A stretch of 64,000 bases of DNA from Bacilli bacterium. GTDB lineage: Bacteria > Bacillota_I > Bacilli_A > RF39 > UBA660. Made by a program: the position numbers and the translations under genes. The DNA is taken from the NCBI GenBank assembly GCA_017934595.1, contig JAGBJG010000008.1, forward strand, positions 65,687 to 129,686. Reading direction: 5' to 3'. The notes under the pieces were generated by a model. That model worked only from the letters and a program-made list of their open reading frames with translations, had not been told where the DNA came from and searched no databases. Below, in pieces: positions 2,382 through 41,226 of this stretch (positions are counted from its first letter, which is position 1; every line of letters begins with the position of its first letter).

Positions 2382-2432
2382 AATGAGATTGGTCGTGACC
2401 CGTATGGGTTGCGGTCAATCTTATTTTCTTTT
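2382..2432 (+). ncRNA. candidate very short sRNA or orphan terminator: a 15-bp hairpin with 4 G-U pairs and a GUAU loop, followed by UUAUUUUCUUUU
   Basis: Stem 2387-2401 pairs with 2406-2420 only as RNA on the plus strand (G-U pairs become A-C mismatches on the minus strand). U-tract at 2421-2432. Confidence 0.3.
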
Positions 2433-5348: not shown

Positions 5349-5425
5349 AACACATTTAATAATGTGTTTTTTCTTGTAAAAAATACTATATTTTGATATA
5401 ATTTTTATAGAATAGGGTGAGGCTA

Positions 5426-7183
5426 ATGTTCGGTAAGATAATTTATATTAGTGATAACACAGCGCATATATCAATACCAGAAGGTACTCCTGTAGCTACT
5501 AACTTGATGAATATGCATGTTGTATTTGAAGATGATAATAAAAAAATATTAGGAGAAGTAGAAGATGTATCTAAAGAAGTTATTAAGGTTACTTTTTTGG
5601 GTGAAATTACAGAAAGAGGTTTTATTGGTGGAGTAATTAGAAAACCAACATTAGAAGCTAAATTAAGAATTATAAATAAAGATGAATTAGCTATGTTAGT
5701 TGGTGTACCTGGTAAAGGTAGATTTAGTGTTGGTGTATCACCTTTGTATGATGATTATCCTATTATGGCTAATGTTAATGATATGTTTAGTAATCATATG
5801 GCTATATTTGGTAACTCTGGTTCTGGTAAATCATGTGGCGTAGCTAGATTATTGCAAAATGTATTTACTGATCCAGCATTACTTCCATATAAAGCTAATT
5901 TCTTTATTTTTGATGCTTATGGTGAATATCATAACTCATTTAGAAATATTAATAGTATTAATCCAAATTATAATTTTAAATATTATACAACTAATAAATA
6001 TGACACAATGGGTGAAAAATTGAGAATTCCATTATGGCTTTTAGATACAGAGGATTTAGCGATACTTTTAAATGTTACTGAACATTCACAAATACCAATT
6101 GTAGAAAGAATGTTAAAATTAGTTCAAATATTTGCTTTAAGCAGTGAAATGTCTACTAAATATAAAAATCATTTAATAGCTAAAGCTATTATGGCAATAT
6201 TATTTACTAATCAAACATCCGCGTCTAAAAGAAATGATATATTTGCTATTCTAGAAACTTGTTCAACTAATGAATTTAATATGGAAGCTCCTGTACAAGG
6301 ACTTGGTTATGTTCGTAAGTTTAGAGATTGTTTCATTATAGATACAGCAGGTAACTTTACTGAAAGTATCTTAGTAACTGAATATGTAACATCATTTATA
6401 GATGAAGCATTAGATAAATATGAACCAACAGAAATAAATTATTATACATTAGAAGATTTAGAAAAAGCATTAAACTTCACATTAATATCTGAAGGATTAC
6501 TTAGAAATGATATAGCGTATGCATCTGCTATTACATTAAAAGTTAGATTACATTCATTATTAATTAGTGAATATAGTCAGTATTTTAAAGTACCTGAATT
6601 TATTACAAGAGAAAAATATATTGCTTCATTAGTTACAAAAGACGCTCATAAAGCTCAAATAGTTAACTTTAACTTAGAAGATGTAGATGATTGGTTTGCT
6701 AAATTTGTTACTAAGACTTTTGCTAAAATGTTATTTAATTTTGCTAAGAGTTTAAATAACCGTGCTACAATACCATTCCATATCTTCTTAGAAGAAGCAC
6801 ACAGATATGTTCAAAATGATAATGACTTATATTTACTAGGTTATAATATCTTTGAACGTGTTGCTAAGGAAGGTAGAAAATATGGTGTTATTCTAGATTT
6901 AATATCACAAAGACCAGTTGAACTTTCTGAAACAGTTATTTCACAAGTTTCTAACTTTATGATATTTAAATTAACACATCCAAGAGATATTGATTATGTT
7001 AAGAAGATGTTACCTAATATTTCAGCTGACATAGTTGAAAAACAAAAGAGCTTACAACCAGGTACATGTGTTGCCTTTGGACCAGCATTTAAAATACCAA
7101 TGATTATTAAAATGAAAATGCCAGATCCAGCTCCACAATCTTCAAACTGTGATATTATAAATACATGGACAGTACATCAATAG
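5426..7183 (+). CDS. HerA-like P-loop ATPase (HAS-barrel N-terminus, Walker A GNSGSGKS, Walker B LEEAHRY, SQRP motif)
   Basis: Motifs match the HerA/FtsK-type ATPase family. It is paralogous to 17490-19259. Confidence 0.65.
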   Translation: MFGKIIYISDNTAHISIPEGTPVATNLMNMHVVFEDDNKKILGEVEDVSKEVIKVTFLGEITERGFIGGVIRKPTLEAKLRIINKDELAMLVGVPGKGRFSVGVSPLYDDYPIMANVNDMFSNHMAIFGNSGSGKSCGVARLLQNVFTDPALLPYKANFFIFDAYGEYHNSFRNINSINPNYNFKYYTTNKYDTMGEKLRIPLWLLDTEDLAILLNVTEHSQIPIVERMLKLVQIFALSSEMSTKYKNHLIAKAIMAILFTNQTSASKRNDIFAILETCSTNEFNMEAPVQGLGYVRKFRDCFIIDTAGNFTESILVTEYVTSFIDEALDKYEPTEINYYTLEDLEKALNFTLISEGLLRNDIAYASAITLKVRLHSLLISEYSQYFKVPEFITREKYIASLVTKDAHKAQIVNFNLEDVDDWFAKFVTKTFAKMLFNFAKSLNNRATIPFHIFLEEAHRYVQNDNDLYLLGYNIFERVAKEGRKYGVILDLISQRPVELSETVISQVSNFMIFKLTHPRDIDYVKKMLPNISADIVEKQKSLQPGTCVAFGPAFKIPMIIKMKMPDPAPQSSNCDIINTWTVHQ

Positions 7184-17489: not shown

Positions 17490-19259
17490 ATGTTAGGGAA
17501 TATAATAGGGATTGAAGAGAACTTAGTATTATTAAAACTTACAGATACTAATAGTGATAATTTATCTAATATGTATGTAACACTAGAAAATAGTGAAAAT
17601 ATATGTGTAGGTGAAATAGGTAATATAAAAGATGGTATTGCTTATATCAATTTATTAGGTGAAATTATTGATAGTAAATTTGTATTTGGTGTCATTAGAA
17701 AGCCATTAATGAATTCAAATGTTAGATTGATACCAACTGAAAAGGTACCTGCTATTATTTCATGCGATAATTCTGATGAATCTAAATATTTATATTTAGG
17801 TAAAAGTCCAATATATAAAGATGTAGATATTAATATACCAATTAACAAATTCTTTAGTAATCACTTTGCTATATTTGGATCAACTGGATCTGGTAAATCA
17901 TGTTCAGTATCAAGAATATTTCAAAATTTATATAGCAAGAGAAATGCGATTCCATATAAATCAACTATATTAATATTTGATGCATATGGTGAGTATCATC
18001 AAGCATTTTCTAAATTAAGTGAAGTTGCTCCAGAAATATCTTTTAAATCTTATACCACTAATACTAAATTTAGTGATACAGATATTATTAAAATACCTTT
18101 ATGGTTACTTGGAGTAGATGATTTAGCTTTATTATTAGGAGTTGAATCACATAACCAAATTCCAATTGTAGAAAAAGCTTTAAAGATAGTATCTATCTTT
18201 GGTAGAGAAGAATCTGAAGTTATTAAAAGTAAAAATGATATCATTGCCAGAGCTATTTTAGATATCTTAACTAGTGGTAGATCTGCATCTCAAATAAGAG
18301 ATCAAGTTGTATCAGTTTTATCTTACTATAACACAAAAGAATTAAATCTTGAAACACAAATATTCCAACCAGGTTATACAAGAACATTAAAACAATGTTT
18401 ACTTATTGATGCTAATGGCAAGATAAGAGAAATGGAATTATTAATGAATTTCATGAACTCTTTCTTAGATGATTCATTAGAATTAAATTTACCTGATGGA
18501 ACATTTGCTTATACATTAAAAGATTTATGTGATGCGATGGATTTTGCATTAATATCTGAAGGTGTATTAAAGAGTGATAAAATATTTGATGAATCTAATA
18601 TTTTAAAAGTAAGATTACATTCACTACTTAATAGTAATGAAGCAAGATATTTTGACGTTCCTGATTATATAACAAGAGATCAATATATCAGAAATTTACT
18701 TACAGCTACTAATGGTAGAAAAGCTCAAATAATTAACTTTAATATTAACTATGTTGATGATAGATTAGCTAAGACTATAACAAAGATATATTCAAAAATG
18801 TTCTTTGATTATGCTAAACAAATGGATGATAGAGGTTCCTTACCTTTCCATATTGTCTTAGAAGAAGCACATAGATATGTTCAAAATGATAATGATAATT
18901 TCTTATTAGGTTACAATATCTTTGAACGTATTACAAAAGAGGGTAGAAAGTATGGAGTTTTATTAGGATTAATATCTCAAAGACCTTCTGAACTTTCTGA
19001 AACTGCTTTATCTCAATGTAATAACTTCTTAATATTTAAGATGATTCATCCAAATGATATTGGATATATTAGAGAAATGGTTCCAAATATTACTGATGAA
19101 ATAGTTAAGAAAATTAAAATCTTACAACCAGGTACATGTATGGCATTTGGTCTTGCATTTAAAGTTCCGACAATTATTAAATTTGAAATGCCAAATCCAT
19201 CACCTGCGTCTAACTCAGCTAATATAGAAGAAAAATGGTTTATTAAAAAGAATGCGTGA
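17490..19259 (+). CDS. HerA-like P-loop ATPase, second paralog
   Basis: GSTGSGKS, LEEAHRYVQNDND, ISQRPSELSE motifs. The C-terminal ~150 aa are highly similar to 5426-7183. Confidence 0.65.
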   Translation: MLGNIIGIEENLVLLKLTDTNSDNLSNMYVTLENSENICVGEIGNIKDGIAYINLLGEIIDSKFVFGVIRKPLMNSNVRLIPTEKVPAIISCDNSDESKYLYLGKSPIYKDVDINIPINKFFSNHFAIFGSTGSGKSCSVSRIFQNLYSKRNAIPYKSTILIFDAYGEYHQAFSKLSEVAPEISFKSYTTNTKFSDTDIIKIPLWLLGVDDLALLLGVESHNQIPIVEKALKIVSIFGREESEVIKSKNDIIARAILDILTSGRSASQIRDQVVSVLSYYNTKELNLETQIFQPGYTRTLKQCLLIDANGKIREMELLMNFMNSFLDDSLELNLPDGTFAYTLKDLCDAMDFALISEGVLKSDKIFDESNILKVRLHSLLNSNEARYFDVPDYITRDQYIRNLLTATNGRKAQIINFNINYVDDRLAKTITKIYSKMFFDYAKQMDDRGSLPFHIVLEEAHRYVQNDNDNFLLGYNIFERITKEGRKYGVLLGLISQRPSELSETALSQCNNFLIFKMIHPNDIGYIREMVPNITDEIVKKIKILQPGTCMAFGLAFKVPTIIKFEMPNPSPASNSANIEEKWFIKKNA

Positions 19260-19273
19260 GTAGCATTCTTTCT

Positions 19274-19301
19274 TGCATTAATATAAATTTTAATATATAA
19301 T
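19274..19301 (+). promoter_or_regulatory. promoter TTGCAT, 16-nt spacer, TATAAT driving the antitoxin-like sRNA
   Basis: -35 at 19274-19279; -10 at 19296-19301. Confidence 0.45.
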
Positions 19302-19307
19302 GTATAT

Positions 19308-19422
19308 AGATGAGGGAAACTTCATAAAATAAAAAAGGAGTTACTTAACTTCGCGTGTTAGGTTACTACCTTAGTTAGGTTTTGCCTAGCCGTTTATGTT
19401 AAATGGTTAGGCGCTTTTTATT
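19308..19422 (+). ncRNA. candidate ~115-nt sRNA (type I antitoxin-like), copy 1
   Basis: Own promoter; 5' hairpin GAGG-GAAA-CUUC; AAAAAGGAG with no start codon after it; terminator GCCUAGCC...GGUUAGGC plus U-tract at 19384-19422. 5' motif shared with 43928-44034. Confidence 0.45.
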
Positions 19423-19490
19423 ATTGTTAATAAATATATTATTAATAATAATATGATAACTAATTTTAGAAATTTATTATCTTTCTTCAT
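19407..19490 (-). CDS. 27-aa hydrophobic peptide MKKDNKFLKLVIILLLIIYLLTIIKSA (type I toxin-like)
   Basis: Strong RBS AAGGAGG 8 nt before the ATG. Single TM helix with charged ends. Its 3' end overlaps the sRNA terminator. Not in the ORF track (too short). Confidence 0.5.
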   Translation of the reverse strand: MKKDNKFLKLVIILLLIIYLLTIIKSA

Positions 19491-19570
19491 AGTATCAACC
19501 TCCTTTTATATATCATTGGTGATGATAAGAAAAAGAGGTAGCAACCTAACAGTCTTTCACTCCTATAGCA

Positions 19571-19599
19571 ATTGTAACACGAAACATTGTTTGTGTAAA
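19571..19599 (-). promoter_or_regulatory. promoter TTTACA, 17-nt spacer, TACAAT for the small toxin-like peptide mRNA
   Basis: Read on the minus strand. It gives a ~75-nt 5'UTR containing ACCUCUUUUU, which is complementary to the SD AAAAGGAGGU. Confidence 0.4.
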
Positions 19600-19614
19600 T
19601 GTAAAAAAGAAATG

Positions 19615-20553
19615 TTAATTCATTTCTTTTATTTTATCTCCTTGATAAATATTTCTCTTTTTCATTTCTTTATCTATATCATTTAAGACACAGAATTTCT
19701 TTACTAACCAATTAGGTTCGATTAAATCTTCTTTATTAGGATCTCCTGTAATTCTATTAATGACTATCTCAGGTCTTAAATATTCTAACTGGTTACATAC
19801 AATATCTATATATTCTTCTTTAGTTAAGATATGGAATGGATTTTCCATATACATTTTAGCTAATACTGTATCTTTAACTACACTTAACATATGTATTTTT
19901 ATACCTTGAATATCTAAGTTATTTAAATACTTTACTGTTTCAATCATCATATCTTTAGTTTCATAAGGTAAGCCATTTATGATATGTACTACAACATTGA
20001 TATTTCTTTTTCTTAAACTTATAACCATGTCATGAAATTCTTTTAAAGTATGACATCTATTGATTAAATTAGATGTACTTTCATGTATCGTTTGTAGACC
20101 TAACTCAACTGTTAAATATGTTTTTTTAGATAACTCTTCTAAATAATCTAAACATTCATCTGTTATAGCGTCAGCTCTTGTAGCTATATTTATACCAACT
20201 ACATTAGGTAAGTTTAATACAGCTTCATATTTTTCTTTTAATACTTCTACTTTAGCATAAGTATTAGTATTAGCTTGGAAATAAGCTATATATTTACTAT
20301 TAGGCCATTTTTTACTAATCATATTTTTTACTTCATTAAATTGTTTTACTAAATTATCTTTAGGATTTCCACCAAATTCACCGGAACCACCTTTGCAATA
20401 AATACATCCACCAATACCTTTAGTACCATCAATATTAGGGCAAGTAAATCCACCGTTTAATGATACTTTAAATACTTTAGAATTAAATTTATGTTTATAA
20501 AAATAATCTAGTGTATGATATCTTTTATTTGAATCACTATATAAAAAGGCCAT
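19615..20553 (-). CDS. TIGR01212-family radical SAM protein
   Basis: CPNIDGTKGIGGCIYC cysteine motif near the N-terminus; RBS GGTGAT. Confidence 0.75.
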   Translation of the reverse strand: MAFLYSDSNKRYHTLDYFYKHKFNSKVFKVSLNGGFTCPNIDGTKGIGGCIYCKGGSGEFGGNPKDNLVKQFNEVKNMISKKWPNSKYIAYFQANTNTYAKVEVLKEKYEAVLNLPNVVGINIATRADAITDECLDYLEELSKKTYLTVELGLQTIHESTSNLINRCHTLKEFHDMVISLRKRNINVVVHIINGLPYETKDMMIETVKYLNNLDIQGIKIHMLSVVKDTVLAKMYMENPFHILTKEEYIDIVCNQLEYLRPEIVINRITGDPNKEDLIEPNWLVKKFCVLNDIDKEMKKRNIYQGDKIKEMN

Positions 20554-20652
20554 AAAATCACCTAATTAATTATAACATATATGAAAAAAATGTGAAAAAA
20601 TATTTATTTTTATTATTTAAAAGTGTTATAATTAAAATGGAGGTTAGATAAT

Positions 20653-22044
20653 ATGAAGAAGAATAGTTTATTAAAAGCGATTCTAATTGCGTTTGGTATT
20701 GCTGTTATTCTAAGTTGGATTATTCCTGCTGGTGGATATAGTTCTGGTACATTTACTGCTGGTACTACTAATCCTGTAGGTATCATTAACTTATTTAGAT
20801 TACCAGTAATGACAATGCAAACATTCATTCAATACACTATTGTATTCTTAAGTATTGGTGCTTTATATGGCGTACTTAATAAAACTGGTGTATATGGTAA
20901 TATCGTTTCAGGTATTGCTAAAAAATGGAAAGGAAAAGAAAAAGCATTACTAGTAATTATTACTATTGCATTTGCGTTAATTGGTTCATTAACTGGATTA
21001 TCAGTATATGCATTCTTAATATTACCATTTGTAGCTGCTATCTTAATGATGGCTGGATTTGATAAATTTTCTAGTCTACTTGCTACAGTAGGTGCGTTAC
21101 TAGTAGGTGAAGCTGCATCAATTTTTGGATTCAGTGGAGCTGGATATATTATTAATGTATTTGGTCTTAAAATGACTGATGAAGTAATTACAAAAATAAT
21201 ATTATTTGTATTACTATTAGGTTTATACTTATTCTTTGTAATAAGAAAGAGTGTAGTAGGAAAGAAGAAAGAAGAAGAAATTCCATTCTTAGTAGTTGAA
21301 AAAGCTTCTAAGAAGAGTAAGATGCCATTAATCATTATATCTGTTGTATTCTTAATTATTTCATTAATTGGTATGTATAACTGGTATTATGGTTGGGGTG
21401 TAGAATTCTTCAATAACTTAGATACTAAGATTAGTTCTATTACTATTGGAACTTATCCAATTATGTCTAATATCTTAAATGGTGTATCTATTTTAGGATA
21501 TTGGGGTAACTATGAATTTGCAGTTGCTATCGTAATTGTAACATTCATTATTGCTTGGGTTTACAATGTTAAATTAGCTGATTTAGCTGAAGGCGCTAAA
21601 GATGGTATGAAAGAAATATTACCTGTTGCTATTTATGCAACTATCTGTAATATTATATTCACTGTTATGTTAGCTGATCAAAGTAATATGTATGCTACTA
21701 TTGTTAACTGGTTAAATGGTATTAAAGGTACATACAGTGTTCCAGTAGCATCATTAATTTCAGCATCAGGATCACTTTTCTATAATGATTTCTATTACTT
21801 ATTATATAATGCCGCTAATGTATTCAGTACATATGAAGCAGTATATTATCCAGTATTAGGAGTATTAACTACAGGTATCTTTGGTATCTTTATGATGGTA
21901 CTTCCTACAAGTGTTATGTTAGTAGCTGGATTAAAATACTTTAATGTTTCTTATACTGAATGGTTAAAGAAGATGTGGTTATATCTATTAGAAGCATTAG
22001 TAGTATTAATTATAGTAGTTATTGTAGTAACAATGATGATATAA
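20653..22044 (+). CDS. polytopic membrane transporter, YfcC-like family
   Basis: ~12 predicted TM helices; N-terminus resembles the YfcC (putative basic amino acid antiporter) family; RBS GGAGG. Confidence 0.5.
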   Translation: MKKNSLLKAILIAFGIAVILSWIIPAGGYSSGTFTAGTTNPVGIINLFRLPVMTMQTFIQYTIVFLSIGALYGVLNKTGVYGNIVSGIAKKWKGKEKALLVIITIAFALIGSLTGLSVYAFLILPFVAAILMMAGFDKFSSLLATVGALLVGEAASIFGFSGAGYIINVFGLKMTDEVITKIILFVLLLGLYLFFVIRKSVVGKKKEEEIPFLVVEKASKKSKMPLIIISVVFLIISLIGMYNWYYGWGVEFFNNLDTKISSITIGTYPIMSNILNGVSILGYWGNYEFAVAIVIVTFIIAWVYNVKLADLAEGAKDGMKEILPVAIYATICNIIFTVMLADQSNMYATIVNWLNGIKGTYSVPVASLISASGSLFYNDFYYLLYNAANVFSTYEAVYYPVLGVLTTGIFGIFMMVLPTSVMLVAGLKYFNVSYTEWLKKMWLYLLEALVVLIIVVIVVTMMI

Positions 22045-22094
22045 TAAATAATTAAAAAGGGATTAAATTAATCCCTTTTTGTGTGTATTTATGA
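22045..22094 (+). repeat. 50-bp direct repeat, copy 1 (contains terminator hairpin GGGATTAA-ATT-TTAATCCC plus T5)
   Basis: A near-identical copy lies at 22908-22958 (one extra A). Confidence 0.8.
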
Positions 22095-22126
22095 AAATGT
22101 GCATATAATATAAGTGAATATACTAT

Positions 22127-22155
22127 TTGACATTTATTATGTTTTATAGTATATT
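22127..22155 (+). promoter_or_regulatory. promoter TTGACA, 17-nt spacer, TATATT for the ToxI-like repeat RNA and toxin
   Basis: Perfect -35; followed by a small leader hairpin GCAUUU-GUG-AAAUGC at 22163-22177. Confidence 0.5.
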
Positions 22156-22183
22156 AAAGTTGCATTTGTGAAATGCAGTAGAT

Positions 22184-22296
22184 AAAAAAGCTGGTGATTC
22201 CCACCATAAGAGGAACCGAAAAAAGATAGTGATTCCGACTATGACAGGAACCGAAAAAAGATAGTGATTCCGACTATGACAGGAAACTAAAAAAGT
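22184..22296 (+). ncRNA. type III antitoxin-like RNA: 3.2 tandem 35-nt repeats starting AAAAAAG
   Basis: R1 22184-22218, R2 22219-22253, R3 22254-22288 (R2 and R3 differ at 2 positions; R1 is more divergent), then a partial 4th unit. Same architecture as ToxI/antiQ. Confidence 0.6.
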
Positions 22297-22330
22297 AACT
22301 AGAGAGCAAACTCTAGTTTTATTTTATATA
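22296..22330 (+). terminator. intrinsic terminator or attenuator between the repeat RNA and the toxin gene
   Basis: AACUAGAG-AGCAAA-CUCUAGUU hairpin followed by UUUUAUUUUAU. Confidence 0.6.
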
Positions 22331-22394
22331 TATTGCGAACAAATGTATTGTAAAAAGGAGTGCGTTATGTTAAAATAAATATAGAGGTGATAAT

Positions 22395-22894
22395 ATGAAC
22401 GGCTTTTTAATAGTCAAGGTAAATTCGAAGTATTGTGATTATTTAAGAAAATATGATAGTAAGGTTCCATATAATTCTGGATTAAAAGAATTAAGACCTT
22501 TTATTGGAGTGTTGTTTTATATTGATAATATGATGTATTTTGCGCCTCTATCAAGTCCTAAACCTAAACATCAACGATTGAGAGCTAAACCTGATTTGAT
22601 TAAAATTGATGATGGTAAACTTGGTGTAGTTAATCTAAATAATATGATCCCTGTTAAAGAAAATTTAATTGAATTAATAGATTTAGACAGAACTAGTGAT
22701 GATATATCAGAAAAACAATATATTAAATTATTAAAAAACAATTAAATTGGTTGAATCGTAATAAGGTAAAGATTAAAGAAAAATCTATTTCGTTATATGA
22801 TAAATATATTACTGGTAGATTAAATGTCTATGTAAAAGAAAGATGTTGTGATTTTAAATTACTTGAAGAAAAATGTATGAAATATAAGTTATAA
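22395..22894 (+). pseudogene. ToxN/AbiQ-family type III toxin (endoribonuclease), disrupted by a frameshift in an A6 run at 22733-22738
   Basis: The N-terminus SKYCDYLRKYDSKVP...FIGVLFYIDNMMYFAPLSSPK matches my recollection of ToxN. Frame 0 stops at 22745. The +1 frame continues for 51 aa to TAA at 22892-22894 and matches the ToxN C-terminus (CDFKLLEEK), restoring ~167 aa. Confidence 0.65.
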
Positions 22895-22907
22895 GGATGT
22901 ATAATAT

Positions 22908-22958
22908 TAAATAATTAAAAAAGGGATTAAATTAATCCCTTTTTGTGTGTATTTATGA
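22908..22958 (+). repeat. direct repeat, copy 2 (51 bp) with the terminator hairpin
   Basis: Identical to 22045-22094 except for one extra A. Confidence 0.8.
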
Positions 22959-22996
22959 TATAATATATAGGTATTAGTTTAAAGGAGGGAATCCCT

Positions 22997-23299
22997 ATGT
23001 TATCTAAAAATGAAGTAGATCATGTAGCTGATTTAGCTAGATTACATGTTGACGAAGCTGAATATGAGTTATATGAAAAACAATTATATGATATATTATC
23101 AGAAATTAAAAAAATAGAAGATGTTGATGTTGAGGGAGAAACTGAAATTATGATATCTCCATCAACAAATAAAAATACATATTCAAATGATTCAATTGGA
23201 CCAATGCTTTCAACAAGTGATGTATTAAAAAACGCTAAACATACTAATGGTGATTTTATTGTTGTGCCTAGAGTAGTTGCTGATTCTGAGGAGATATAA
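22997..23299 (+). CDS. gatC: Asp/Glu-tRNA amidotransferase subunit C
   Basis: Typical GatC N-terminus VDHVADLARLHVDEAE; first gene of gatCAB. Confidence 0.85.
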   Translation: MLSKNEVDHVADLARLHVDEAEYELYEKQLYDILSEIKKIEDVDVEGETEIMISPSTNKNTYSNDSIGPMLSTSDVLKNAKHTNGDFIVVPRVVADSEEI

Positions 23300-23300
23300 T

Positions 23301-24746
23301 ATGACAAAGTATTTAGATTTAAGCATTAAAGAAATTAATGAATTATTAAAAGATAAAAAGATTAAACCAATAGATTTAGTAAACGAAGCATTTGAAAGAA
23401 TTGAAGCAAGTGATTTAAACGCTTTTATAACTTTAAACAAAGAAGAAGCTATAAAAGAAGCATTAGAATTAGAAAATAAAGAAATAGATAATATATTATT
23501 TGGAATCCCTGTTGCTATAAAAGATAACATTGTAACTAAAGGGTTAAGAACTACAGCTGCCTCACATATATTAGATGATTTCAATCCTATATATGATGCG
23601 GAAGTTATAAAAAAAATAAAAGATAAACATATGATAATTGTTGGTAAAACTAACATGGATGAATTTGCCATGGGATCAACTGGTGAGACTAGTTATTTTG
23701 GTAACACTTTAAATCCATGGGACAAAAAAATGGTTCCAGGTGGTTCTTCATCTGGTTCAGCCGCATCAGTAGGAGCTAGATTAGTTCCAATAGCTTTAGG
23801 TACTGATACAGGCGGAAGTATCCGTCAACCTTCAAGTTTCTGTGGCGTAGTAGGTTTAAAACCAACATATGGTAGAGTATCAAGATACGGTCTTATTGCT
23901 TTCGCATCTTCTCTAGATCAAATTGGACCAATCACTAGAAATGTATATGAAAACGCATTAATGTTAAATGTAATTGCAGGTCAAGATGATAAAGATATGA
24001 CTTCTAGTTATGAAGAAGTAAAAGACTATACTTGTTTAATAGGTGAAGATGTTAAAGGTATGAAGATAGCTATACCTAAATTTTATATGAGTGAAACTAT
24101 TGATAAAGAAGTAAGAGATAAAGTAGAAAATGTTACAAAAATATTAAAAGATAAAGGATGTACTGTAGATTATGTAGATATGAAATATGTTTCATCCGCG
24201 ATTCCTTTATATCAAGTAATTGCTTTAGGTGAAGCGAGCTCTAACCTAGCTAGATATGATGGTGTTAGATATGGATATGTAACTAAAGATTTTAAAGATA
24301 TCAATGAATTATATAAAATGACAAGATATGAAGGCTTTGGTAGAGAAGTAAAAAGAAGATTAATGATAGGTTCATATATCTTAAGCGGTAAAAACGCGGA
24401 TAAATATTATAGAAAAGCATTAATTGTAAGGAAAAAATTAACAGATGAATTTAAAAGTATATTATCTAAATATGATTTAATTATTGGACCTACAAATACT
24501 AATGTAGCTTATCCTATAGGTACTAAATTAGATGATGCCTTAAAAAGTTTCTACGATGATTTACTTACTATACCTGTTAATATGGCAGGTCTACCAGCTA
24601 TGTCTCTTCCAATAGGATTTAAAAATGGCCTACCTGTAGGTATGCATATTATAGGTAATTATTTTAGTGAAGAAGAAATATATAAATTAGGAAGTTTTGT
24701 TGAAAAAGAATTAAACTTAAACTTAGATCCAAGAGGTGATAAGTAA
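23301..24746 (+). CDS. gatA: Asp/Glu-tRNA amidotransferase subunit A (amidase signature)
   Basis: Amidase signature GGSSSGSAASV, GTDTGGSIRQP; RBS GAGGAG. Confidence 0.9.
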   Translation: MTKYLDLSIKEINELLKDKKIKPIDLVNEAFERIEASDLNAFITLNKEEAIKEALELENKEIDNILFGIPVAIKDNIVTKGLRTTAASHILDDFNPIYDAEVIKKIKDKHMIIVGKTNMDEFAMGSTGETSYFGNTLNPWDKKMVPGGSSSGSAASVGARLVPIALGTDTGGSIRQPSSFCGVVGLKPTYGRVSRYGLIAFASSLDQIGPITRNVYENALMLNVIAGQDDKDMTSSYEEVKDYTCLIGEDVKGMKIAIPKFYMSETIDKEVRDKVENVTKILKDKGCTVDYVDMKYVSSAIPLYQVIALGEASSNLARYDGVRYGYVTKDFKDINELYKMTRYEGFGREVKRRLMIGSYILSGKNADKYYRKALIVRKKLTDEFKSILSKYDLIIGPTNTNVAYPIGTKLDDALKSFYDDLLTIPVNMAGLPAMSLPIGFKNGLPVGMHIIGNYFSEEEIYKLGSFVEKELNLNLDPRGDK

Positions 24747-26152
24747 TGTACGAAGTAGTAGTAGGAATAGAAGTACACGTTGAATTAAAAAGTAATTCAA
24801 AAGTGTTTTCACATAGTCAAAATGAATATTCTAATGAACCAAATATCTATGTAAATGAAATAGATTTAGGTATGCCTGGAGTACTTCCAGTATTAAATAA
24901 AAAAGTAATTGAAATGGCTTTACAAGCCTCTTTAGCCTTGAACTGTAAAATAAACAAAGTAATGCACTTCGATAGAAAAAATTATTTCTATCCAGACTTA
25001 CCAAAAGGATATCAAATAACAGAGCAAGATACACCAATTGGATATGATGGATATATTGATATTGGTGATAAGAAAATAGGTATTGAAAGATTACATATCG
25101 AAGAAGATACATGTAAAAGTATTCATGGTAAAACTGGTACTATGTTAAATGCCAACAGAGCTGGTGTACCATTAATTGAAATAGTATCTAAACCAGATAT
25201 GAGAAGTCCAGAAGATGCAGTCGCATATTTAACTAAATTAAGAGAAATATTATTATATTTAGGTATCAGTGATGTAAAAATTGAAGAAGGTTCAATGAGA
25301 TGTGACTGTAATGTATCACTACATAAACCTGGAACACCATTTGGTACTAAAATAGAAATTAAAAATATTGGTTCTATCAATAACGTTGGTGAAGCTATTA
25401 AATATGAAATAAAAAGACAAAGTGAAATCCTTGATAGAGAAGGTTTCATTAAACATGAGGAGACTAGAAGACTTGACGACAAGACAATGACAACTATACT
25501 TATGCGTGTAAAGGAAACTGGTAATGATTATAGATATTTTCCTGAACCAGATATTCCTTATGTAGAAATTAGTGATGATTGGATTAATGAAGTAAAAGCT
25601 AATATGCCAGTATTCGCTGATGAATTAAAAGAAAAATATGAAGCATTAGGTATTAATTCTAATAATCTTAAGACTATTATTAGTAGATTAGATTTAGTAG
25701 AATTTTTAGAATCTGTTATTGATTCATGTGATCCTATAATCGCATCTAATTTACTTACAGGAGATATCTTAAGTTATTTAAATAAAAATTATGTATCTAT
25801 TAATAAAATTAAATTAAATAGTGATAACTTTGTAGAACTTGTTAATAATATTAAAGAAGATAAAGTATCTAGTAAGCAAGCTAAGGAAATCATTCCTTAT
25901 CTATGTGAAAATGGTGGTACTTTAGCTGATGCTATATCAAAACTTGGTATAGAAGAAATTAATGATATTAGTGCTATAAAAGATATTATTAAAAAAGTAT
26001 TAGATAGTAATCCAGAATCTATCAAAGACTTTAAAGAAGGAAAAGATAGAGCTATAAAATACCTTATGGGTCAAGTTATGAAAGAGTCAAAGGGTAAGGT
26101 AAATCCAAAGACAGCTAATGATCTTTTAATGTCTTTAATTCGTGAATACTAA
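24746..26152 (+). CDS. gatB: Asp/Glu-tRNA amidotransferase subunit B
   Basis: GatB N-terminal cradle domain and the YqeY-like C-terminus. Confidence 0.9.
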   Translation: MYEVVVGIEVHVELKSNSKVFSHSQNEYSNEPNIYVNEIDLGMPGVLPVLNKKVIEMALQASLALNCKINKVMHFDRKNYFYPDLPKGYQITEQDTPIGYDGYIDIGDKKIGIERLHIEEDTCKSIHGKTGTMLNANRAGVPLIEIVSKPDMRSPEDAVAYLTKLREILLYLGISDVKIEEGSMRCDCNVSLHKPGTPFGTKIEIKNIGSINNVGEAIKYEIKRQSEILDREGFIKHEETRRLDDKTMTTILMRVKETGNDYRYFPEPDIPYVEISDDWINEVKANMPVFADELKEKYEALGINSNNLKTIISRLDLVEFLESVIDSCDPIIASNLLTGDILSYLNKNYVSINKIKLNSDNFVELVNNIKEDKVSSKQAKEIIPYLCENGGTLADAISKLGIEEINDISAIKDIIKKVLDSNPESIKDFKEGKDRAIKYLMGQVMKESKGKVNPKTANDLLMSLIREY

Positions 26153-26203
26153 ATTGTAAATTGAAGACATTTATAGTATAATTAAAATAGAGGTGGAATT
26201 GAT

Positions 26204-26659
26204 ATGGAATTTATAAAAAAGAATAAGAAGATGGTAATAATAATCGCAGTTGCTTTAGTAATAATAATTTTACTTTTTGGTATCATTAAATCTTTAATGC
26301 CAGATACAAGAAAGAGTGTATGGGGTACTAGGACTGTTGATGTTTCTAAACATCCAATAAGTGATGAGGAAATAAGCGCTGTTAAAGAATTCTATGAGAG
26401 TAACGAAAATGTAGTTAATATTACATATCGTTTAAGTGGTAGAAAGATGATCTTCATTATAACTGTAAAAGAAAAAACAGCTAAAAGTGTAGTGGAAGAA
26501 TTATCAGGAAAAATGTTAGAAAAATTAAGTGATGATGTAAAGGGATTCTATGACATTGAACTTTCATATGTATGTGAAGATAGTGAAAATGCTGAATATC
26601 CAATTATGGCTTATAGAAATAAAACAAGACATAACTTTAGATTCACTTATGCGGGGTAA
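26204..26659 (+). CDS. hypothetical membrane-anchored protein
   Basis: N-terminal TM; RBS AGAGGTGGA. Confidence 0.45.
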   Translation: MEFIKKNKKMVIIIAVALVIIILLFGIIKSLMPDTRKSVWGTRTVDVSKHPISDEEISAVKEFYESNENVVNITYRLSGRKMIFIITVKEKTAKSVVEELSGKMLEKLSDDVKGFYDIELSYVCEDSENAEYPIMAYRNKTRHNFRFTYAG

Positions 26660-26662
26660 TAT

Positions 26663-28693
26663 ATGAAGAAAAAAGTAGTAATAATAATTATATCTCTTGT
26701 AGTTGTTCTTGCTATATTAGGTGGTTTCTTATATTTCACAAGTGAAGATAAGATCACATCATTAAACGCTATTGAAAAGAAGTGGATCGATAGTAATAAA
26801 AAAACATTACAAGATATATCAATATATACTGATATTCCAGTATTTAGTTACAATAGTGAAGGTATAATATTTGATTATTTAAACAACTTAGAAAATTCAA
26901 CAGGATTAGAGTTTAATAAAGTTCCATATAAAATTGGTGACACAATTAAAACTGATTATGCTTTTGAGCAAAAAGATACTTTAGATAATGATGATATTCT
27001 TATGTATACTGATAACTATGTATTAGTAACTAAAACAAATAAAGTATATAATAACCCGAGCGAAATGAAAAATTTCACTGTGGGTATATTAAATGATACA
27101 TTAGATAAAGTAAATGGATATTTATTAGGAGCTGATGTATCATATAAAACATTCAATGATTATAATGCGATGATGCAATCTTTAGGTGTAGATGTTGATT
27201 CTGTTGTTATACCTAGAATTAGATTTTTAGCTAATGTAGTTGATAATGATTCATTAAATATTAGTTATAATATTACAGAATATAAAATATATTATGTATT
27301 AAATTTAGGAAGTAATAACACTTTAAATAATATATTAACTAAGTATTACAAAAAGTGGAGTAATGATAACTATGATAAATCATTCAATACTAATTTATTA
27401 AATAGTTATTTTGCTGTATCTGAAGATGCTTCTAAGAATATAGCTAGACTTAGAAGTAAAAGATATATATATGGATTTGTAAATAATGCTCCATATGATA
27501 TTTTAAGTGATGGAGAATTAGTTGGTATAAATAATGAAATAATTTCTAATTTTTCAAAAGTATCAGGTATTACTATTGAATATAAAGAGTTTAATAATGT
27601 TGATAGTTTAGTTGAAGCTTTTAATTCAAATAAAATTGATTTCTATTTTGATAGTAGTAAGGAATATACTTATGATTTAGATATTAATAAATCCGTATCA
27701 CCTTTTAGTGAATCAATAGTTATATTAACATCCAATAAAAGCAATATAATTGTTAATTCAATTAATTCATTAAGTGATACAAAGGTAGGCGTACTTAAAA
27801 ATAGTAAAATATCTAATTATTTAACAGAACACAATATTCCGGTTAAAGAATATGATAGTGTTAAAAAGTTAATGAATGATAAAAAAGTATCTGTTAAGGC
27901 AATCGATAATTATAATTATGAATATTACATAAATAAAGGAATTAAGAATTATCGTAAGAATTATGAAGTAACATTCTCTGGTGATTATACATATGTATTT
28001 AGAAGCATAACTGATAATAAAGATTTTTATAATTTCTTTAATTTCTATTTAACATTTGTAGGCACTAAGTCACTTATAAATACAGGTATAAATGCTGCTA
28101 TTAATAATACAATGATATTTGTAACATTGAGATATGTTGCGTATGTATTAGGAGCTTTATTAATAGCTTCACTAATCGCATTAGTAGTATATAAAATAAA
28201 ACATAGACAAGCTAAAAAATCTAATTTGACTAAAGAAGAAAAATTAAAATACATTGATATGTTAACTTCTTTAAAAAATAGAAATTATTTAAATGATAAT
28301 ATTGAACTTTGGGATAATTCAGAAGTATATCCACAAAGTATAGTTATGGTTGATTTAAATAACTTAGCTTATATAAATGATAACTATGGTCATGCTGAAG
28401 GCGATGAAGTAATTAAAGAAGCAGCTAATATCCTTATTAGAACACAAATACCTAATAGTGAAATAATAAGAACTAATGGTAATGAATTCTTAATATATTT
28501 AGTTTCATATGATGAAAAACAAGTTATAGCATATATAAGAAAAATAGCAAAAGAATTAAAAGATGTAGCTCATGGATTTGGATCTGCAATTGGTTATAGT
28601 ATGATAACTGATGCTATTAAAACAATTGATGATGCAATTAATGAAGCAACACTTGATATGAAAAATAATAAGGAGGAATTAAGCAAAGATTAG
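26663..28693 (+). CDS. membrane protein with periplasmic solute-binding-like domains and a C-terminal GGDEF-like domain whose motif is degenerate (NGNEF)
   Basis: TM at ~470-500; GGDEF-domain flanking motifs (DLNNLAYINDNYGH, RTNGNEF). Confidence 0.65.
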   Translation: MKKKVVIIIISLVVVLAILGGFLYFTSEDKITSLNAIEKKWIDSNKKTLQDISIYTDIPVFSYNSEGIIFDYLNNLENSTGLEFNKVPYKIGDTIKTDYAFEQKDTLDNDDILMYTDNYVLVTKTNKVYNNPSEMKNFTVGILNDTLDKVNGYLLGADVSYKTFNDYNAMMQSLGVDVDSVVIPRIRFLANVVDNDSLNISYNITEYKIYYVLNLGSNNTLNNILTKYYKKWSNDNYDKSFNTNLLNSYFAVSEDASKNIARLRSKRYIYGFVNNAPYDILSDGELVGINNEIISNFSKVSGITIEYKEFNNVDSLVEAFNSNKIDFYFDSSKEYTYDLDINKSVSPFSESIVILTSNKSNIIVNSINSLSDTKVGVLKNSKISNYLTEHNIPVKEYDSVKKLMNDKKVSVKAIDNYNYEYYINKGIKNYRKNYEVTFSGDYTYVFRSITDNKDFYNFFNFYLTFVGTKSLINTGINAAINNTMIFVTLRYVAYVLGALLIASLIALVVYKIKHRQAKKSNLTKEEKLKYIDMLTSLKNRNYLNDNIELWDNSEVYPQSIVMVDLNNLAYINDNYGHAEGDEVIKEAANILIRTQIPNSEIIRTNGNEFLIYLVSYDEKQVIAYIRKIAKELKDVAHGFGSAIGYSMITDAIKTIDDAINEATLDMKNNKEELSKD

Positions 28694-37126: not shown

Positions 37127-37489
37127 ATGAAAAAAGGATTTACTTTGGTTGAATTATTAGCTGTAATAGCTGTACTAGCTTTAATAGCTGCTATATCATA
37201 TCCTATTGTTACAGGCCTATTAGGTGATATGAAAGAAAATGCATCTGAATCACAAAAAAGAGAAATTATTGATGCAGCTAAATATTGGGTACAAAATAAT
37301 AGTGCGTTATTATCAGATACAGTAGGTGCAGAATATACATTAACTGTTCAAAGACTTAAAGATGAAGAATATCTTAGTAATGAAAAATTAAGAGATATAG
37401 AAACTAGCGCAGTATTAAAAAAAGCTTGTGTAAAAATAACTACACAAGATCATAAATACACATATGAATATGTTAAAAATTGCCAATAA
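37127..37489 (+). CDS. prepilin-type (type IV pilin/ComGC-like) pseudopilin
   Basis: MKKGFTLVELLAVIAVLALIA class III signal (G at -1, E at +5). Confidence 0.7.
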   Translation: MKKGFTLVELLAVIAVLALIAAISYPIVTGLLGDMKENASESQKREIIDAAKYWVQNNSALLSDTVGAEYTLTVQRLKDEEYLSNEKLRDIETSAVLKKACVKITTQDHKYTYEYVKNCQ

Positions 37490-38002: not shown

Positions 38003-38079
38003 GCCTTAATAGCTCAGTTGGTTAGAGCACTTGACTGTTAATCAAGGGGTCGTAGGTTCGAGTCCTACTTGGGGCGCCA
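38003..38079 (+). tRNA. tRNA-Asn (anticodon GTT)
   Basis: Acceptor GCCTTAA/TTGGGGC, anticodon loop CTGTTAA, CCA end. Confidence 0.85.
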
Positions 38080-38083
38080 TTCT

Positions 38084-38160
38084 GGCCAGTTGGTGAAGTG
38101 GCTTAACACACTGCCCTTTCACGGCAGCATTCATGGGTCCGAATCCCGTACTGGTCACCA
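38084..38160 (+). tRNA. tRNA-Glu (anticodon TTC)
   Basis: Acceptor GGCCAGT/ACTGGTC, anticodon loop CTTTCAC, T-loop TCCGAAT; terminator hairpin follows at 38172-38200. Confidence 0.85.
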
Positions 38161-38242
38161 TTTTGAAATTAACCTAGATTTATATCTGGGTTTTATTTTG
38201 TCTATTTTTATGATAAAATATTATAAGAATAGGAGACTGAAC

Positions 38243-39583
38243 ATGAAGAAAAAGGGATTTACATTAATAGAGTTATTAGCAGTAATAGTAATATTAGCTA
38301 TAATAGCTTTAATATTAACACCAGTGATAAGTAATGTAATAGAAAGCGCACGTGAAGCTGCATTTAAACAAACGATAAATGGAGTACTATCAGCAGCAGA
38401 AAGTTATGTAACAGAACATATATTAGACAATAATGGGACAGATATGCAATATCCAATTACATTTACATGTGATGGCGTATCATGTAAGGATGAAAATAAT
38501 AATGAATTAGTGTTTAATGGAAAAGTACCGATAACAGGAACAGTAATTATAGAAGAAAATACTATAAGAGCAGAGGAATTATGTGATGGAAAACAATGTG
38601 GTTCTGGATCCAAAGAAAACGTAATAGTAAATAATGGTTCAACTCCAGTAGAAGCATGCAACGCTTCACCTGGTGATGTATGGTTATTTAATTATTTAGA
38701 TGAAACACATGAAACAAGATATCATACTTTTGCTATCCCATGTCGTGGAACATATAAATTTGAAGTATGGGGAGCTCAAGGCGGTTCAGTTGATTCATAC
38801 TATGGAGGTAAAGGTGGTTACTCTGTTGGTGAACTCCCATTAACTACTGCTGATACTTTATATATTGCTGTTGGTGGTCAAGGTGGTAAATCCGGATCTG
38901 GCGTAGTTTATGGTGGATACAATGGCGGTGGTAACGGCCATGGTGGAACATGTAATGGAAATGGAAATAGATGGGGGACTTCTGGTGGTGGAGCTACTCA
39001 TATAGCTAAAGTTCCTGGAGAATTACCGTTACTTGAATCTTATAAAGGTATATTAAGTGATAATGGTACTACCAATGATATATCTGATGATCATTATATA
39101 TCTGATTATATTTTAATTGTAGCCGGAGGCGGCGGTGGTGGTTTTAACATTGCAAATTGGATGTATGGACCTGGTGGCTTTGGTGGAGGTGCTGTTGGTG
39201 GAAATGGTACTCATAATAGTGCTGGTCAAACAACTGATTATGCTACAGGTGGTACACAAATATCTGCCGGTTACCCTGGTGATGGATATACAAGTATTTC
39301 ATCTAGAAGTGCTCGCTTTATAGAATATACAATTGCATCTTTTGGTCAAGGCGGTAATACCACTACTTGGGATTGTATAGAAGGCGGCGGAGGCGGCGGA
39401 GGCTTCTTTGGTGGTGGTTCTGGTTCAGAAACAGCAGGAGCTGGTGGATCTGGATATATAGGTGTACTAAGTAATGCTTCAATGATAGCTGGTAATTCAG
39501 CTATGCCAACATATGATGGAACATCAACAATGATAGGTAATGGTGGAAATGGATTTGCCAAAATTACATTTTTAGGTAATTAA
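38243..39583 (+). CDS. type IV prepilin-like N-terminus fused to a large glycine-rich domain (446 aa)
   Basis: MKKKGFTLIELLAVIVILAIIA class III signal, then YKFEVWGAQGG...YIAVGGQGG motifs and long G runs. Start at 38243 with RBS AGGAG. The ORF-track start at 38069 overlaps the tRNAs and is rejected. Confidence 0.6.
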   Translation: MKKKGFTLIELLAVIVILAIIALILTPVISNVIESAREAAFKQTINGVLSAAESYVTEHILDNNGTDMQYPITFTCDGVSCKDENNNELVFNGKVPITGTVIIEENTIRAEELCDGKQCGSGSKENVIVNNGSTPVEACNASPGDVWLFNYLDETHETRYHTFAIPCRGTYKFEVWGAQGGSVDSYYGGKGGYSVGELPLTTADTLYIAVGGQGGKSGSGVVYGGYNGGGNGHGGTCNGNGNRWGTSGGGATHIAKVPGELPLLESYKGILSDNGTTNDISDDHYISDYILIVAGGGGGGFNIANWMYGPGGFGGGAVGGNGTHNSAGQTTDYATGGTQISAGYPGDGYTSISSRSARFIEYTIASFGQGGNTTTWDCIEGGGGGGGFFGGGSGSETAGAGGSGYIGVLSNASMIAGNSAMPTYDGTSTMIGNGGNGFAKITFLGN

Positions 39584-39764: not shown

Positions 39765-39858
39765 TGATGAAATTGAAGCAATAGACTCAAGTTTATTGCT
39801 TTTTTCATTGTAAAAAAAATATTAAATGATATACTATATACAGAATAGGAGAGTATAT

Positions 39859-41226
39859 ATGAAGGAAAAGGGATTTACATTAATAGAATTATTGGCAGTT
39901 ATAGTAATATTAGCTATAATAGCTTTAATAATAACTCCAATAATATCAAACGTTATTGATGCTTCTAGAAAAGCAGCCTTTAAAGAATCAGTAAATGGTA
40001 TTATTGATTCAGGAGGAAGTTATCTACAAGAATATATTTTAGCTCATAATGATGAATTAAATGATTTTCCAGTAGAATTTCCATGTGATGGAACAAAATG
40101 TGGAAATGATGAATTTACTTTAACATTTAAAGGAAATGTACCAAAAAGTGGAAATATCATAATTCAAAGAGATGGTATATTAGCTGAATATATCACAGAC
40201 GGAAAATACTGTGCATACGGATATAAATGGAATTTAGTAGTAGAAAATAGTTGTGGGGATGTAGATGTGACAAACCCAACAATTACAGGAACACAAAACG
40301 GAAAAGTTATAACATTAACAATGACAGATAATGAATCTGGAATAGATAGTTATTGTGCGACTAATGTTGATAGTACTGAAGGATGTAATTGGGTAGTACC
40401 AAGTAATGCTTCAAGTGAAGAATATGAAATAGCAGAAGCAGGAACAAAATATTTCTTTACTAAAGATAAAAAGGGAAATATTTCAGATAGTATTAATTTT
40501 ACAACGACATCAAATGATTATTGCCAATATATTTTAAATCCAATAGCTGGCGAATATGGATATAAAGGTAGTGTTCAATCATTTACAGTACCAGCTGATT
40601 GTCCTGGAACATATAAATTAGAAGTATGGGGAGCACAAGGTGGTAGTAGTACACAAGGTGGCTCTGGTGCCTATGGTGGTTATTCTTCTGGAACAGTAAA
40701 ACTAGCTGCTGGAACAGTATTATATATTGCAGTAGGAGGCCAAGGCGGCGCTGGTGGTGGTGGCTATAACGGCGGTGGATCTGCGTTTAGTATAAGTGGT
40801 GGCGGTGGCGGAGCTACACATATTGCTACTACTAACCGTGGTACATTATCAAATTATAATTCATATAGAAGTGAAGTTTTAATTGTTGCAGGTGGTGGCG
40901 GCGGAGTTGGTTTTTGGACAGATTATGGTCTTCAATTCTTAGCTGGTGGTGCTGGTGGTGGTACTACTGGTGGAAATAGTACACGTGGTGCTCAAGGTGG
41001 AACTCAAAGTAGTGGTTATGCCTTTGGTCAAGGTGGCAATGGGACATGTTATGGCGGTGGAGCTGGCGGCGGCGGCGGCTGGTATGGCGGCTATGGTATT
41101 AACTGTAATGATGGTGGTGGCGGCGGTGGTTCCGGATATATCGGCGGTGTAACCGACGGAACTACAACAGCTGGGCAACGTGCAGGACATGGTGGTGCTA
41201 AAATAACTTTCATAAGTTTTAATTAA
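39859..41226 (+). CDS. type IV prepilin-like N-terminus fused to a large glycine-rich domain (455 aa), paralog of 38243-39583
   Basis: MKEKGFTLIELLAVIVILAIIA, then YKLEVWGAQGG...YIAVGGQGG and G runs; C-terminal AKITFISFN, like AKITFLGN in the paralog. Confidence 0.6.
   Translation: MKEKGFTLIELLAVIVILAIIALIITPIISNVIDASRKAAFKESVNGIIDSGGSYLQEYILAHNDELNDFPVEFPCDGTKCGNDEFTLTFKGNVPKSGNIIIQRDGILAEYITDGKYCAYGYKWNLVVENSCGDVDVTNPTITGTQNGKVITLTMTDNESGIDSYCATNVDSTEGCNWVVPSNASSEEYEIAEAGTKYFFTKDKKGNISDSINFTTTSNDYCQYILNPIAGEYGYKGSVQSFTVPADCPGTYKLEVWGAQGGSSTQGGSGAYGGYSSGTVKLAAGTVLYIAVGGQGGAGGGGYNGGGSAFSISGGGGGATHIATTNRGTLSNYNSYRSEVLIVAGGGGGVGFWTDYGLQFLAGGAGGGTTGGNSTRGAQGGTQSSGYAFGQGGNGTCYGGGAGGGGGWYGGYGINCNDGGGGGGSGYIGGVTDGTTTAGQRAGHGGAKITFISFN

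Follow-up and report, generated by a model that had tools for sequence, protein, structure and literature searches.

How does a minimal type III toxin–antitoxin module come to lie between a membrane transporter gene and the essential gatCAB operon of a bacterial chromosome, bracketed by two almost identical direct repeats of about 50 bp? The question is raised by a 64-kb stretch of contig JAGBJG010000008.1 (positions 65,687–129,686 of assembly GCA_017934595.1, assigned to an uncultured member of the Bacilli), hereafter the window, in which a ToxIN cassette occupies the transporter–gatC spacer; all coordinates without a contig name refer to this window. A first-pass annotation of the same DNA had read the layout as a cassette inserted into an intergenic terminator with duplication of the target, and the empty sites and outgroups described below support that reading. 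A derived insertion of 813 bp at 22095–22907, accompanied by a 51-bp target duplication, is very probably what the locus records. The full account, in which this event, its consequences for the adjoining genes, the mechanism by which it came about and two later changes are taken together, is held with fair but not high confidence.

The repeats themselves are sharply delimited. The 41-nt sequence AAAAAGGGATTAAATTAATCCCTTTTTGTGTGTATTTATGA occurs as an exact match at precisely two sites in the window, 22054–22094 and 22918–22958, and leftward of it the identity runs on through TAAATAATT, with the second copy longer by one A (A6 as against A5). The full copies are alike at 50 of 51 nt and differ by this one indel, confirming both the extents and the extra A that the first-pass annotation had recorded. 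No match to AAAAAGGGATTAAATTAATCCCTTTTTGTGTGTATTTATGA, with up to three mismatches tolerated, arose in any of 100 dinucleotide-preserving shuffles of the window, and a looser search with a 21-nt core of the repeat (again with at most three mismatches) found no third site within it. Each copy holds a perfect 13-1-13 palindrome, AAAAAGGGATTAA-A-TTAATCCCTTTTT, which is followed by a T-run and was called by a terminator scan as an intrinsic terminator on both strands. The 51-bp segment is composed of 9 nt, this 27-nt palindrome and 14 nt that reach the extended −10 element of gatCAB; copy 1 begins straight after the stop codon of the transporter gene (22042–22044), and 38 nt separate the end of copy 2 from the gatC ATG (22997).

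Beyond the window, a 25-nt core of the repeat matched none of the viral contigs in IMG/VR and one contig among the JGI metagenomes, which turned out to be the empty site of another strain at the same locus. Among all 50 loci fetched, the core is restricted to the transporter–gatC locus, where each filled contig has it two times and each empty one a single time. A common dispersed element, the possibility for which the first-pass annotation had proposed this search, was rejected on these grounds: the repeat is confined to one locus throughout the window, IMG/VR, the JGI metagenomes and the fetched loci. An assembly artefact was rejected too, because the copies differ by the A5/A6 variation and seven independent contigs share the structure; the repeat is, moreover, shorter than the read length. 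Contigs of the Logan collection (k = 31) break at the repeat.

The polarity of the event was read from the corresponding sites in other genomes, and the informative ones among these were found by an exact-protein look-up of contigs encoding an identical GatC; a contig scan based on the transporter returned only relatives at 68% and 40%, in which the downstream synteny is not conserved, and was uninformative on the empty site. The filled locus is present on seven contigs (L019 and six similar ones). Another seven, with 100% identical GatC (L020, L021, L022, L023 = L015, L025, L027 and L028), carry an empty site: past the stop codon of the transporter gene comes a single 51-mer, to which TATAATATATAGG...gatC is joined without a gap. 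Their flanking DNA is 96–99% identical to the window, and the contigs therefore belong to the same species; BLAST alignments against them stop at 22094 and restart at 22887, shortly before copy 2. L006, a 93% relative, is likewise empty, with one copy and no ToxIN. In relatives at 85–89% DNA identity (L007, L013 and L008–L010), a different terminator follows the transporter, and after it comes a pilin-like (N_methyl) gene of 128 aa; beyond this gene, L013 and L008–L010 have one GGGATTAATTTAATCCC terminator segment immediately before gatC, and the L007 contig stops inside the pilin-like gene.

Because the empty sites of the same species and the relatives alike carry one copy before gatC, the single-copy, ToxIN-free state is taken to be ancestral, the repeated segment is identified as the native terminator and leader of gatCAB, and ToxIN is interpreted as a derived, lineage-specific insertion. 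The comparison of the transporter–gatC interval that the first-pass annotation had called for thus finds the duplicated state unshared by relatives, and its prediction of one repeat and no ToxIN in related genomes held in the seven same-species contigs, L006, L013 and L008–L010. Its assignment of the repeat to the transporter fared less well: the segment does contain an intrinsic terminator, but it is gatCAB, not the transporter, that it accompanies, and the TG of the extended −10 forms part of it.

The 51-mer is itself polymorphic within the species, having T or A at the centre of the hairpin loop and GTG or GCG among the bases downstream. Both window copies, L020 and L028 have an A at the loop centre (22067 and 22931 in the window), as against a T in L021–L023, L025, L027, L006 and the outgroups; a T/A swap at the centre of a perfect palindrome cannot, as such, be told from an inversion of that palindrome. 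Both window copies bear the same A/GTG haplotype, which L020 and L028 carry in single copy, and to judge from these alleles the shared haplotype fits a duplication in place. The A5 of copy 1 would be a later loss, since all empty sites have A6 before GGG.

This polymorphism bears equally on the opposite polarity, under which the filled state would be ancestral and the single-copy alleles would be deletions produced by recombination between the repeats. Recombination between 51-bp direct repeats would precisely regenerate one copy, and L020 and L028 do share the loop haplotype of the filled allele. However, all the outgroups (at 93%, 89% and 85%) are single-copy and lack ToxIN, and most of the empty sites carry a loop T or GCG that cannot be derived from the filled allele. 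The seven filled contigs, for their part, encode identical proteins and look like one clone, and the data in hand already point to the filled allele as a single derived tip among the flanks; the origin of the duplication would, besides, stay unexplained. An ancestral filled state is thus regarded as highly improbable.

With insertion into a single-copy site retained as the preferred reading, the position of the joints can be set against the layout that they left behind. The segment of the empty site ends in ...TATTTATGA directly before TATAAT, so that it contributes the TG of the extended −10, and TATTTATGATATAATATATA(G/A)G is kept before gatC in all relatives. The insert ends 13 nt past the toxN stop codon and contains no terminator of its own for toxN. 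After the insertion, copy 1 would still terminate the transporter transcript, copy 2 is predicted to terminate that of toxN, and copy 2 joined to the unique TATAAT would restore the putative gatCAB promoter exactly (Table 1). The transporter, toxN and gatCAB would all keep or gain their signals because the duplicated segment consists of a terminator and promoter-proximal bases, and the retained or gained terminators together with the restored promoter of the essential gatCAB operon probably explain why the event was tolerated. Duplication of a terminator with the edge of a promoter may in this manner let foreign DNA land in front of an essential operon without disturbing it.

Table 1. Features of the transporter–gatCAB interval and its ToxIN insertion (window coordinates)
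Feature	Coordinates	Strand	Basis and remarks
Upstream host gene, 463-aa membrane transporter, DcuC/YfcC type	20653..22044	+	Open reading frame; Pfam PF03606 DcuC, E = 5e-11; conserved in relatives
Copy 1 of duplicated target	22045..22094	+	50 nt, A5 variant; hairpin 22054–22080
Inserted DNA, 813 bp	22095..22907	+	Missing from same-species empty-site contigs; GC 25.8% vs window 26.6%
ToxIN promoter TTGACA-17-TATATT	22127..22155	+	11/12 consensus matches; conserved in L016
toxI antitoxin RNA gene	22184..22288	+	Three tandem 35-nt repeats, each beginning AAAAAAG
Terminator/attenuator between toxI and toxN	22297..22318	+	Terminator scan; conserved in L016 and L017
toxN (ToxN/AbiQ endoribonuclease) pseudogene	22395..22894	+	Open reading frames 22395–22745 and 22751–22894
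Copy 2 of duplicated target	22908..22958	+	51 nt, A6 like all empty sites; hairpin 22918–22944
gatCAB extended −10 (TGATATAAT)	22956..22964	+	Straddles right end of copy 2; read from sequence, putative promoter
Downstream operon gatC-gatA-gatB	22997..26152	+	Open reading frames; Pfam GatC match; Amidase and GatB annotations

The DNA between the copies had been described at first pass as a self-contained type III module. It is indeed a ToxIN module, with promoter, toxI array, terminator and toxN in the canonical type III toxin–antitoxin order, but it is not intact, as toxN is frameshifted into two open reading frames (ORFs). The Pfam profile PF13958 is split over them, its positions 3–111 falling on the first ORF and 117–159 on the second. 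The −1 frameshift lies at an A6 run (22733–22738) where the closest homologue, that of L016, has A7, and the addition of one A restores a 166-aa ToxN that retains every residue invariant across 24 ToxN sequences. This repaired protein matches the PADLOC AbiQ profile at 2e-40 and the Bacillus thuringiensis ToxN of PDB 4ATO at 1e-24; PDB 2XD0 and 4GLK were also matched. In the toxI repeats, compensatory changes are seen at three of the four pairs of a 4-bp hairpin (nine repeats from three loci), and an Rfam scan of 21000–24000 returned no ToxI, even at E ≤ 1, nor any other credible RNA family.

The truncated 116-aa ToxN is encoded on seven contigs, which are all those with this allele in a collection of 5.8 billion proteins, and no intact version of the allele is found there; because of this, the frameshift reads as a real and fixed mutation. 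Since the codons downstream of it are still fully conserved, the loss of the toxin would be recent, or possibly reversible by slippage. The toxI array has outlasted the toxin, which fits the usual decay path of chromosomal toxin–antitoxin modules. Both a gene of the ToxN/AbiQ fold and, upstream of it, an array of ~34–36-nt repeats with a terminator are present, and the layout is the same as in the known ToxIN/AbiQ systems of the Pectobacterium plasmid pECA1039, of Bacillus thuringiensis (PDB 4ATO) and of Lactococcus (AbiQ, PDB 4GLK). The present system differs from these in the −1 frameshift carried by every contig bearing toxN, and in its setting, which is the chromosome, between housekeeping genes, and not a plasmid or phage.

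As to how the cassette arrived, we propose that a minimal ToxIN transcription unit, comprising promoter, three toxI repeats, internal terminator and toxN, entered the transporter–gatC spacer in one lineage by recombinase-independent illegitimate recombination of foreign DNA. The two joints would have been staggered by 51 bp around the terminator hairpin, so that the insertion doubled a 51-bp host stretch and left one copy on each side of the insert. Such a stagger might result from a template switch by a replication or repair polymerase that left the chromosome after ...TATTTATGA and re-entered it upstream of the hairpin, or else from staggered breaks followed by fill-in synthesis. Subsequently, one A would have been lost from copy 1 and another from the A7 run of toxN, the latter inactivating the toxin. 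This specific mechanism is offered tentatively, with confidence slightly short of an even call.

Several features of the insert and of its surroundings are in keeping with it. At 25.8% GC, the insert equals the host in composition; toxI and toxN are all that it contains, and it is too small for a recombinase. Its homology with the L016 cassette starts at ~22102, no more than 8 nt inside the left joint, and therefore essentially only the ToxIN transcription unit appears to have been transferred. An alignment of the left end with the reverse-complemented right end scored 10, as against 11.3 ± 2.1 in a shuffle null, and terminal repeats at the insert ends, whether inverted or direct, were rejected as lying at null level. 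There is no tRNA gene in 18000–27000, and neither an integrase nor a transposase domain turned up in Pfam scans of 60 window ORFs (nearly every ORF of at least 120 aa). For 17 further ToxIN loci, of which 3 are metagenomic and 14 come from IMG/VR, the longest words shared by the two flanks are 9–13 nt, which is chance level, and a repeat search on the ToxIN loci of L017 and L029 found no flanking repeats; the duplication is thus peculiar to this event rather than shared by the ToxIN family. As a separate observation, L017 (ToxN identity 68%) shows an 18-nt likeness at 83% between the terminator that follows the upstream gene (ACTAGAG..CTCTAGTTTTATTTT) and the one inside the cassette, between toxI and toxN, the pair lying at 3694–3722 and 3915–3940 of that contig.

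The same body of evidence bears on site-specific integration in trans, a case in which the 51-mer or its palindrome would be an attachment (att) site, the two copies attL and attR, and the 864-bp unit a non-autonomous cassette resembling a cis-mobilisable element, with the integrase encoded elsewhere in the genome, on a phage or on an integrative and conjugative element (ICE). Direct repeats of tens of bp do bracket the integrase-mediated insertions of prophages, ICEs and cis-mobilisable remnants, as they do here; a perfect palindrome is also a typical recombinase-binding architecture, and the copies are nearly identical. Yet neither the insert nor the rest of the window encodes an integrase, no tRNA gene offers a target nearby, and the cargo amounts to 813 bp alone. 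No other cargo occupies the site in ~15 related contigs, the absence of the 25-nt core from IMG/VR and its restriction to this chromosomal locus in the JGI metagenomes speak against a mobile att site, and the left flank of L016 is unrelated, just as the 17 other ToxIN loci are without flanking repeats. Integration in trans is accordingly rated unlikely. Of the two routes that the first-pass annotation had offered by way of example, site-specific and illegitimate recombination, the former is not borne out, for want of an integrase, a tRNA gene, a recurrence of the site or repeats at the other ToxIN loci, and the latter is the better fit.

A transposase is harder still to reconcile with the locus. 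The cassette would then be a non-autonomous element mobilised by a transposase with an unusually long, hairpin-spanning duplication, such as that of IS1630 (IS30 family) or of the IS1634/IS1549 group. Long and variable duplications are documented for IS1630 of Mycoplasma fermentans (19–26 bp, cited in PMC2853133), and for this and other insertion sequences with long duplications the likeness extends to the duplicated target being an inverted repeat in a low-GC genome of Bacilli or Mollicutes type. Against this, IS1630 has a transposase and terminal inverted repeats, whereas here the insert ends show no such repeats and the window encodes no transposase; the 51-bp duplication is twice the IS1630 range, and the insert is present as a single copy. 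The probability of a transposase origin is put very low.

A Campbell-type single crossover is another candidate. Here a ToxIN circle bearing the same 51 bp, which some other conspecific strain could have supplied by excision or transfer, would have recombined with the chromosomal copy in a RecA-dependent manner. A single crossover automatically yields direct repeats around the whole insert, and the copies share one haplotype. Such a scheme nonetheless moves the problem back, leaving unexplained how ToxIN first came to lie beside a host-specific sequence; it calls for an 864-bp circle without replication function, of which no example, as circle or plasmid, was seen in the plasmid, phage and viral collections searched. 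About 51 bp is, furthermore, close to the minimum length for efficient homologous recombination. The crossover is thus considered quite improbable.

The joints themselves raise a further alternative, in which the duplication preceded the insertion. The terminator of the empty site is framed by an 11-nt direct repeat, ATGATATAATA, one copy of which falls at the stop codon of the transporter gene and the other at the −10 of gatC. Slippage between these repeats might have duplicated the terminator unit in tandem, after which ToxIN would have inserted at the junction of the units. At the right joint, the last 25 nt of the insert show a marginal likeness to the 25 nt left of the target (P ~0.02–0.04), and specifically the 13 nt that precede copy 2 (GGATGTATAATAT) are similar to the end of the transporter gene (GATGATATAAT); for other loci, a comparable model in which the duplication comes first has been put forward (PMC3457768). 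But the intermediate, a tandem duplication without ToxIN, occurs on no contig, and two extra indels (−A and +TTA) would be needed within 14 nt, when the other 51 nt differ by just one. Two rare events would also have to fall at one spot. A duplication-first history is consequently thought rather unlikely.

Several considerations weigh against one-step illegitimate recombination as well. The donor was not recovered, so that microhomology at the joints cannot be established: the closest cassette, that of L016 (74% ToxN identity), lies on a 1.2-kb contig whose left flank is unrelated to the window and which ends at the toxN stop codon, for which reason the right flank of the donor is missing, and a blastn search with the insert (813 bp) of the plasmids in PLSDB and the phages in INPHARED produced only matches of 66–72% over parts of toxN. 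At the left joint the similarity is not significant (P ~0.09–0.14). A recombinase might be encoded beyond the 64-kb window, and the A-loop single-copy alleles of L020 and L028 could in principle be excision products; the flanks of these two are no nearer to the filled allele than are those of the other empty sites.

An insertion of this form finds its closest parallel in a recognised class, insertions that come with a long target duplication (Nobusato et al. 2000, Gene 259:99; Furuta, Abe & Kobayashi 2010, NAR 38:2428, PMC2853133). It is defined by a within-species indel, an insert below 20 kb that is devoid of mobility genes, and a duplication of more than 30 bp that is unique and single-copy in the empty genome (PMC2853133). 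The restriction-modification cases include 46–47-bp repeats in Haemophilus and Thermus that abut or overlap the 3' ends of genes, besides longer duplications, and most of the cases come from naturally competent species (PMC2853133). The mechanism of the class is still unknown, and its authors suggested that breakage of DNA by the cargo may be involved (PMC2853133); the class has also been said to include "other DNAs" (PMC3457768).

The present locus shows a within-species indel whose flanks align on both sides in the seven empty contigs, a duplication above 30 bp that occurs once in L006, L020–L023, L025, L027 and L028, and an insert well within the size limit that holds no other genes of mobile elements; the repeat is neither a tRNA or integrase att site nor a dispersed sequence in the window and the collections searched. 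It thus shares with the class the presence/absence among strains of a compact, selfish addiction module without integrase or transposase, and the long repeats found once in the empty genome at the 3' end of a gene. It differs in its cargo, which is not a restriction-modification system but a type III toxin–antitoxin module whose toxin is an RNase and unable to cut DNA, and in its duplicated segment, which consists of an intrinsic terminator and the edge of a promoter.

Seen in this light, the event is a further case of a known class of insertion, well resolved but not surprising, and current views stand. What it adds is a filled/empty polymorphism of a defence or addiction cassette that is resolved to the base pair within one uncultured species, with the joints, the ancestral site and the outgroups all in hand. 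As the class has so far been documented mainly for restriction-modification genes, a cargo that cannot cut DNA is informative: if the same process was at work, DNA-cutting cargo would not be needed, which argues against breaks made by the cargo as an essential step.

A more general proposition would be that small addiction or defence cassettes reaching from promoter to stop codon (toxin–antitoxin modules of type III and perhaps of type I) enter chromosomes by a hairpin-directed, recombinase-free route that targets terminators and duplicates them. Were this so, the cassette and the neighbouring operons would be automatically insulated from each other, the class would extend beyond DNA-cutting cargo, and its mechanism would be linked with the palindromes of terminators, at which replication might, for instance, stall and switch template. 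The survey of 17 ToxIN loci lends little support to a general terminator-directed route, and we consider the proposition improbable.

The spacer and its vicinity offer several further observations. The prepilin-type (N_methyl) gene of the relatives, at 7461–7847 in L013, 6220–6606 in L008 and 1706–2068 in L007, has its own upstream terminator and is absent from the window species and L006, the equivalent position in the window being 22044/22045; its nearest paralogue in the window (37127–37489) has 40% identity at the N-terminus only. The presence of this gene in some genomes and its absence from others in the same spacer therefore mark the transporter–gatC interval as a site of recurrent gene gain and loss. 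In the same-species empty-site strain L022, the transporter gene is split into two ORFs of 136 and 332 aa (1519–2911 of that contig), which suggests that the transporter is dispensable.

A second small module, resembling a type I toxin–antitoxin system, lies at 19272–19600, 2.6 kb upstream of ToxIN, between convergent HerA-like (DUF87) and radical-SAM genes. On the minus strand, 19407–19490 encodes a 27-aa hydrophobic peptide, MKKDNKFLKLVIILLLIIYLLTIIKSA, preceded by a strong AAGGAGG ribosome-binding site; a convergent plus-strand promoter, TTGCAT-17-TATAAT, lies at ~19274–19302, and 16 nt at 19356–19371 are complementary to 19536–19551. The module is variably present, being absent from the same-species L023 and, of the closely related pair L008 and L009, carried by L008 alone, with a direct repeat of ~10 nt (TAAATACAAA) on its two sides. 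It sits between terminator hairpins, and a BLAST overlap raised the candidate of a second insertion with long duplication here; this was rejected, as the hairpins are separate, diverged terminators of the two convergent genes, and both are also present in outgroups without any insert.

The window sequence is identical to the ENA ruminant-gut metagenome scaffold L003, and its proteins are listed by NCBI under "Bacilli bacterium"; it also encodes peptidoglycan enzymes, and the organism is therefore a walled, uncultured member of the Bacilli. Two paralogous genes for HerA-like (DUF87) ATPases of ~590 aa each lie 10 kb apart, at 5417–7183 and 17490–19259; the second was called as fragments in the relative L008. 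Prepilin N-terminal methylation motifs are encoded by three clustered genes at 37127–37489, 38069–39583 and 39826–41226, two of them coding for large proteins with an ALK/LTK-type glycine-rich domain, and in L022 one such gene stands beside the radical-SAM gene in place of the HerA-like gene. Other functions of toxin or defence type in the window are a 226-aa protein with a PemK/MazF-like domain (60728–61408, minus strand), a 171-aa protein with a CdiA C-terminal toxin domain (2421–2936, minus strand) and a YhcG-type PDDEXK nuclease (56592–57587, plus strand).

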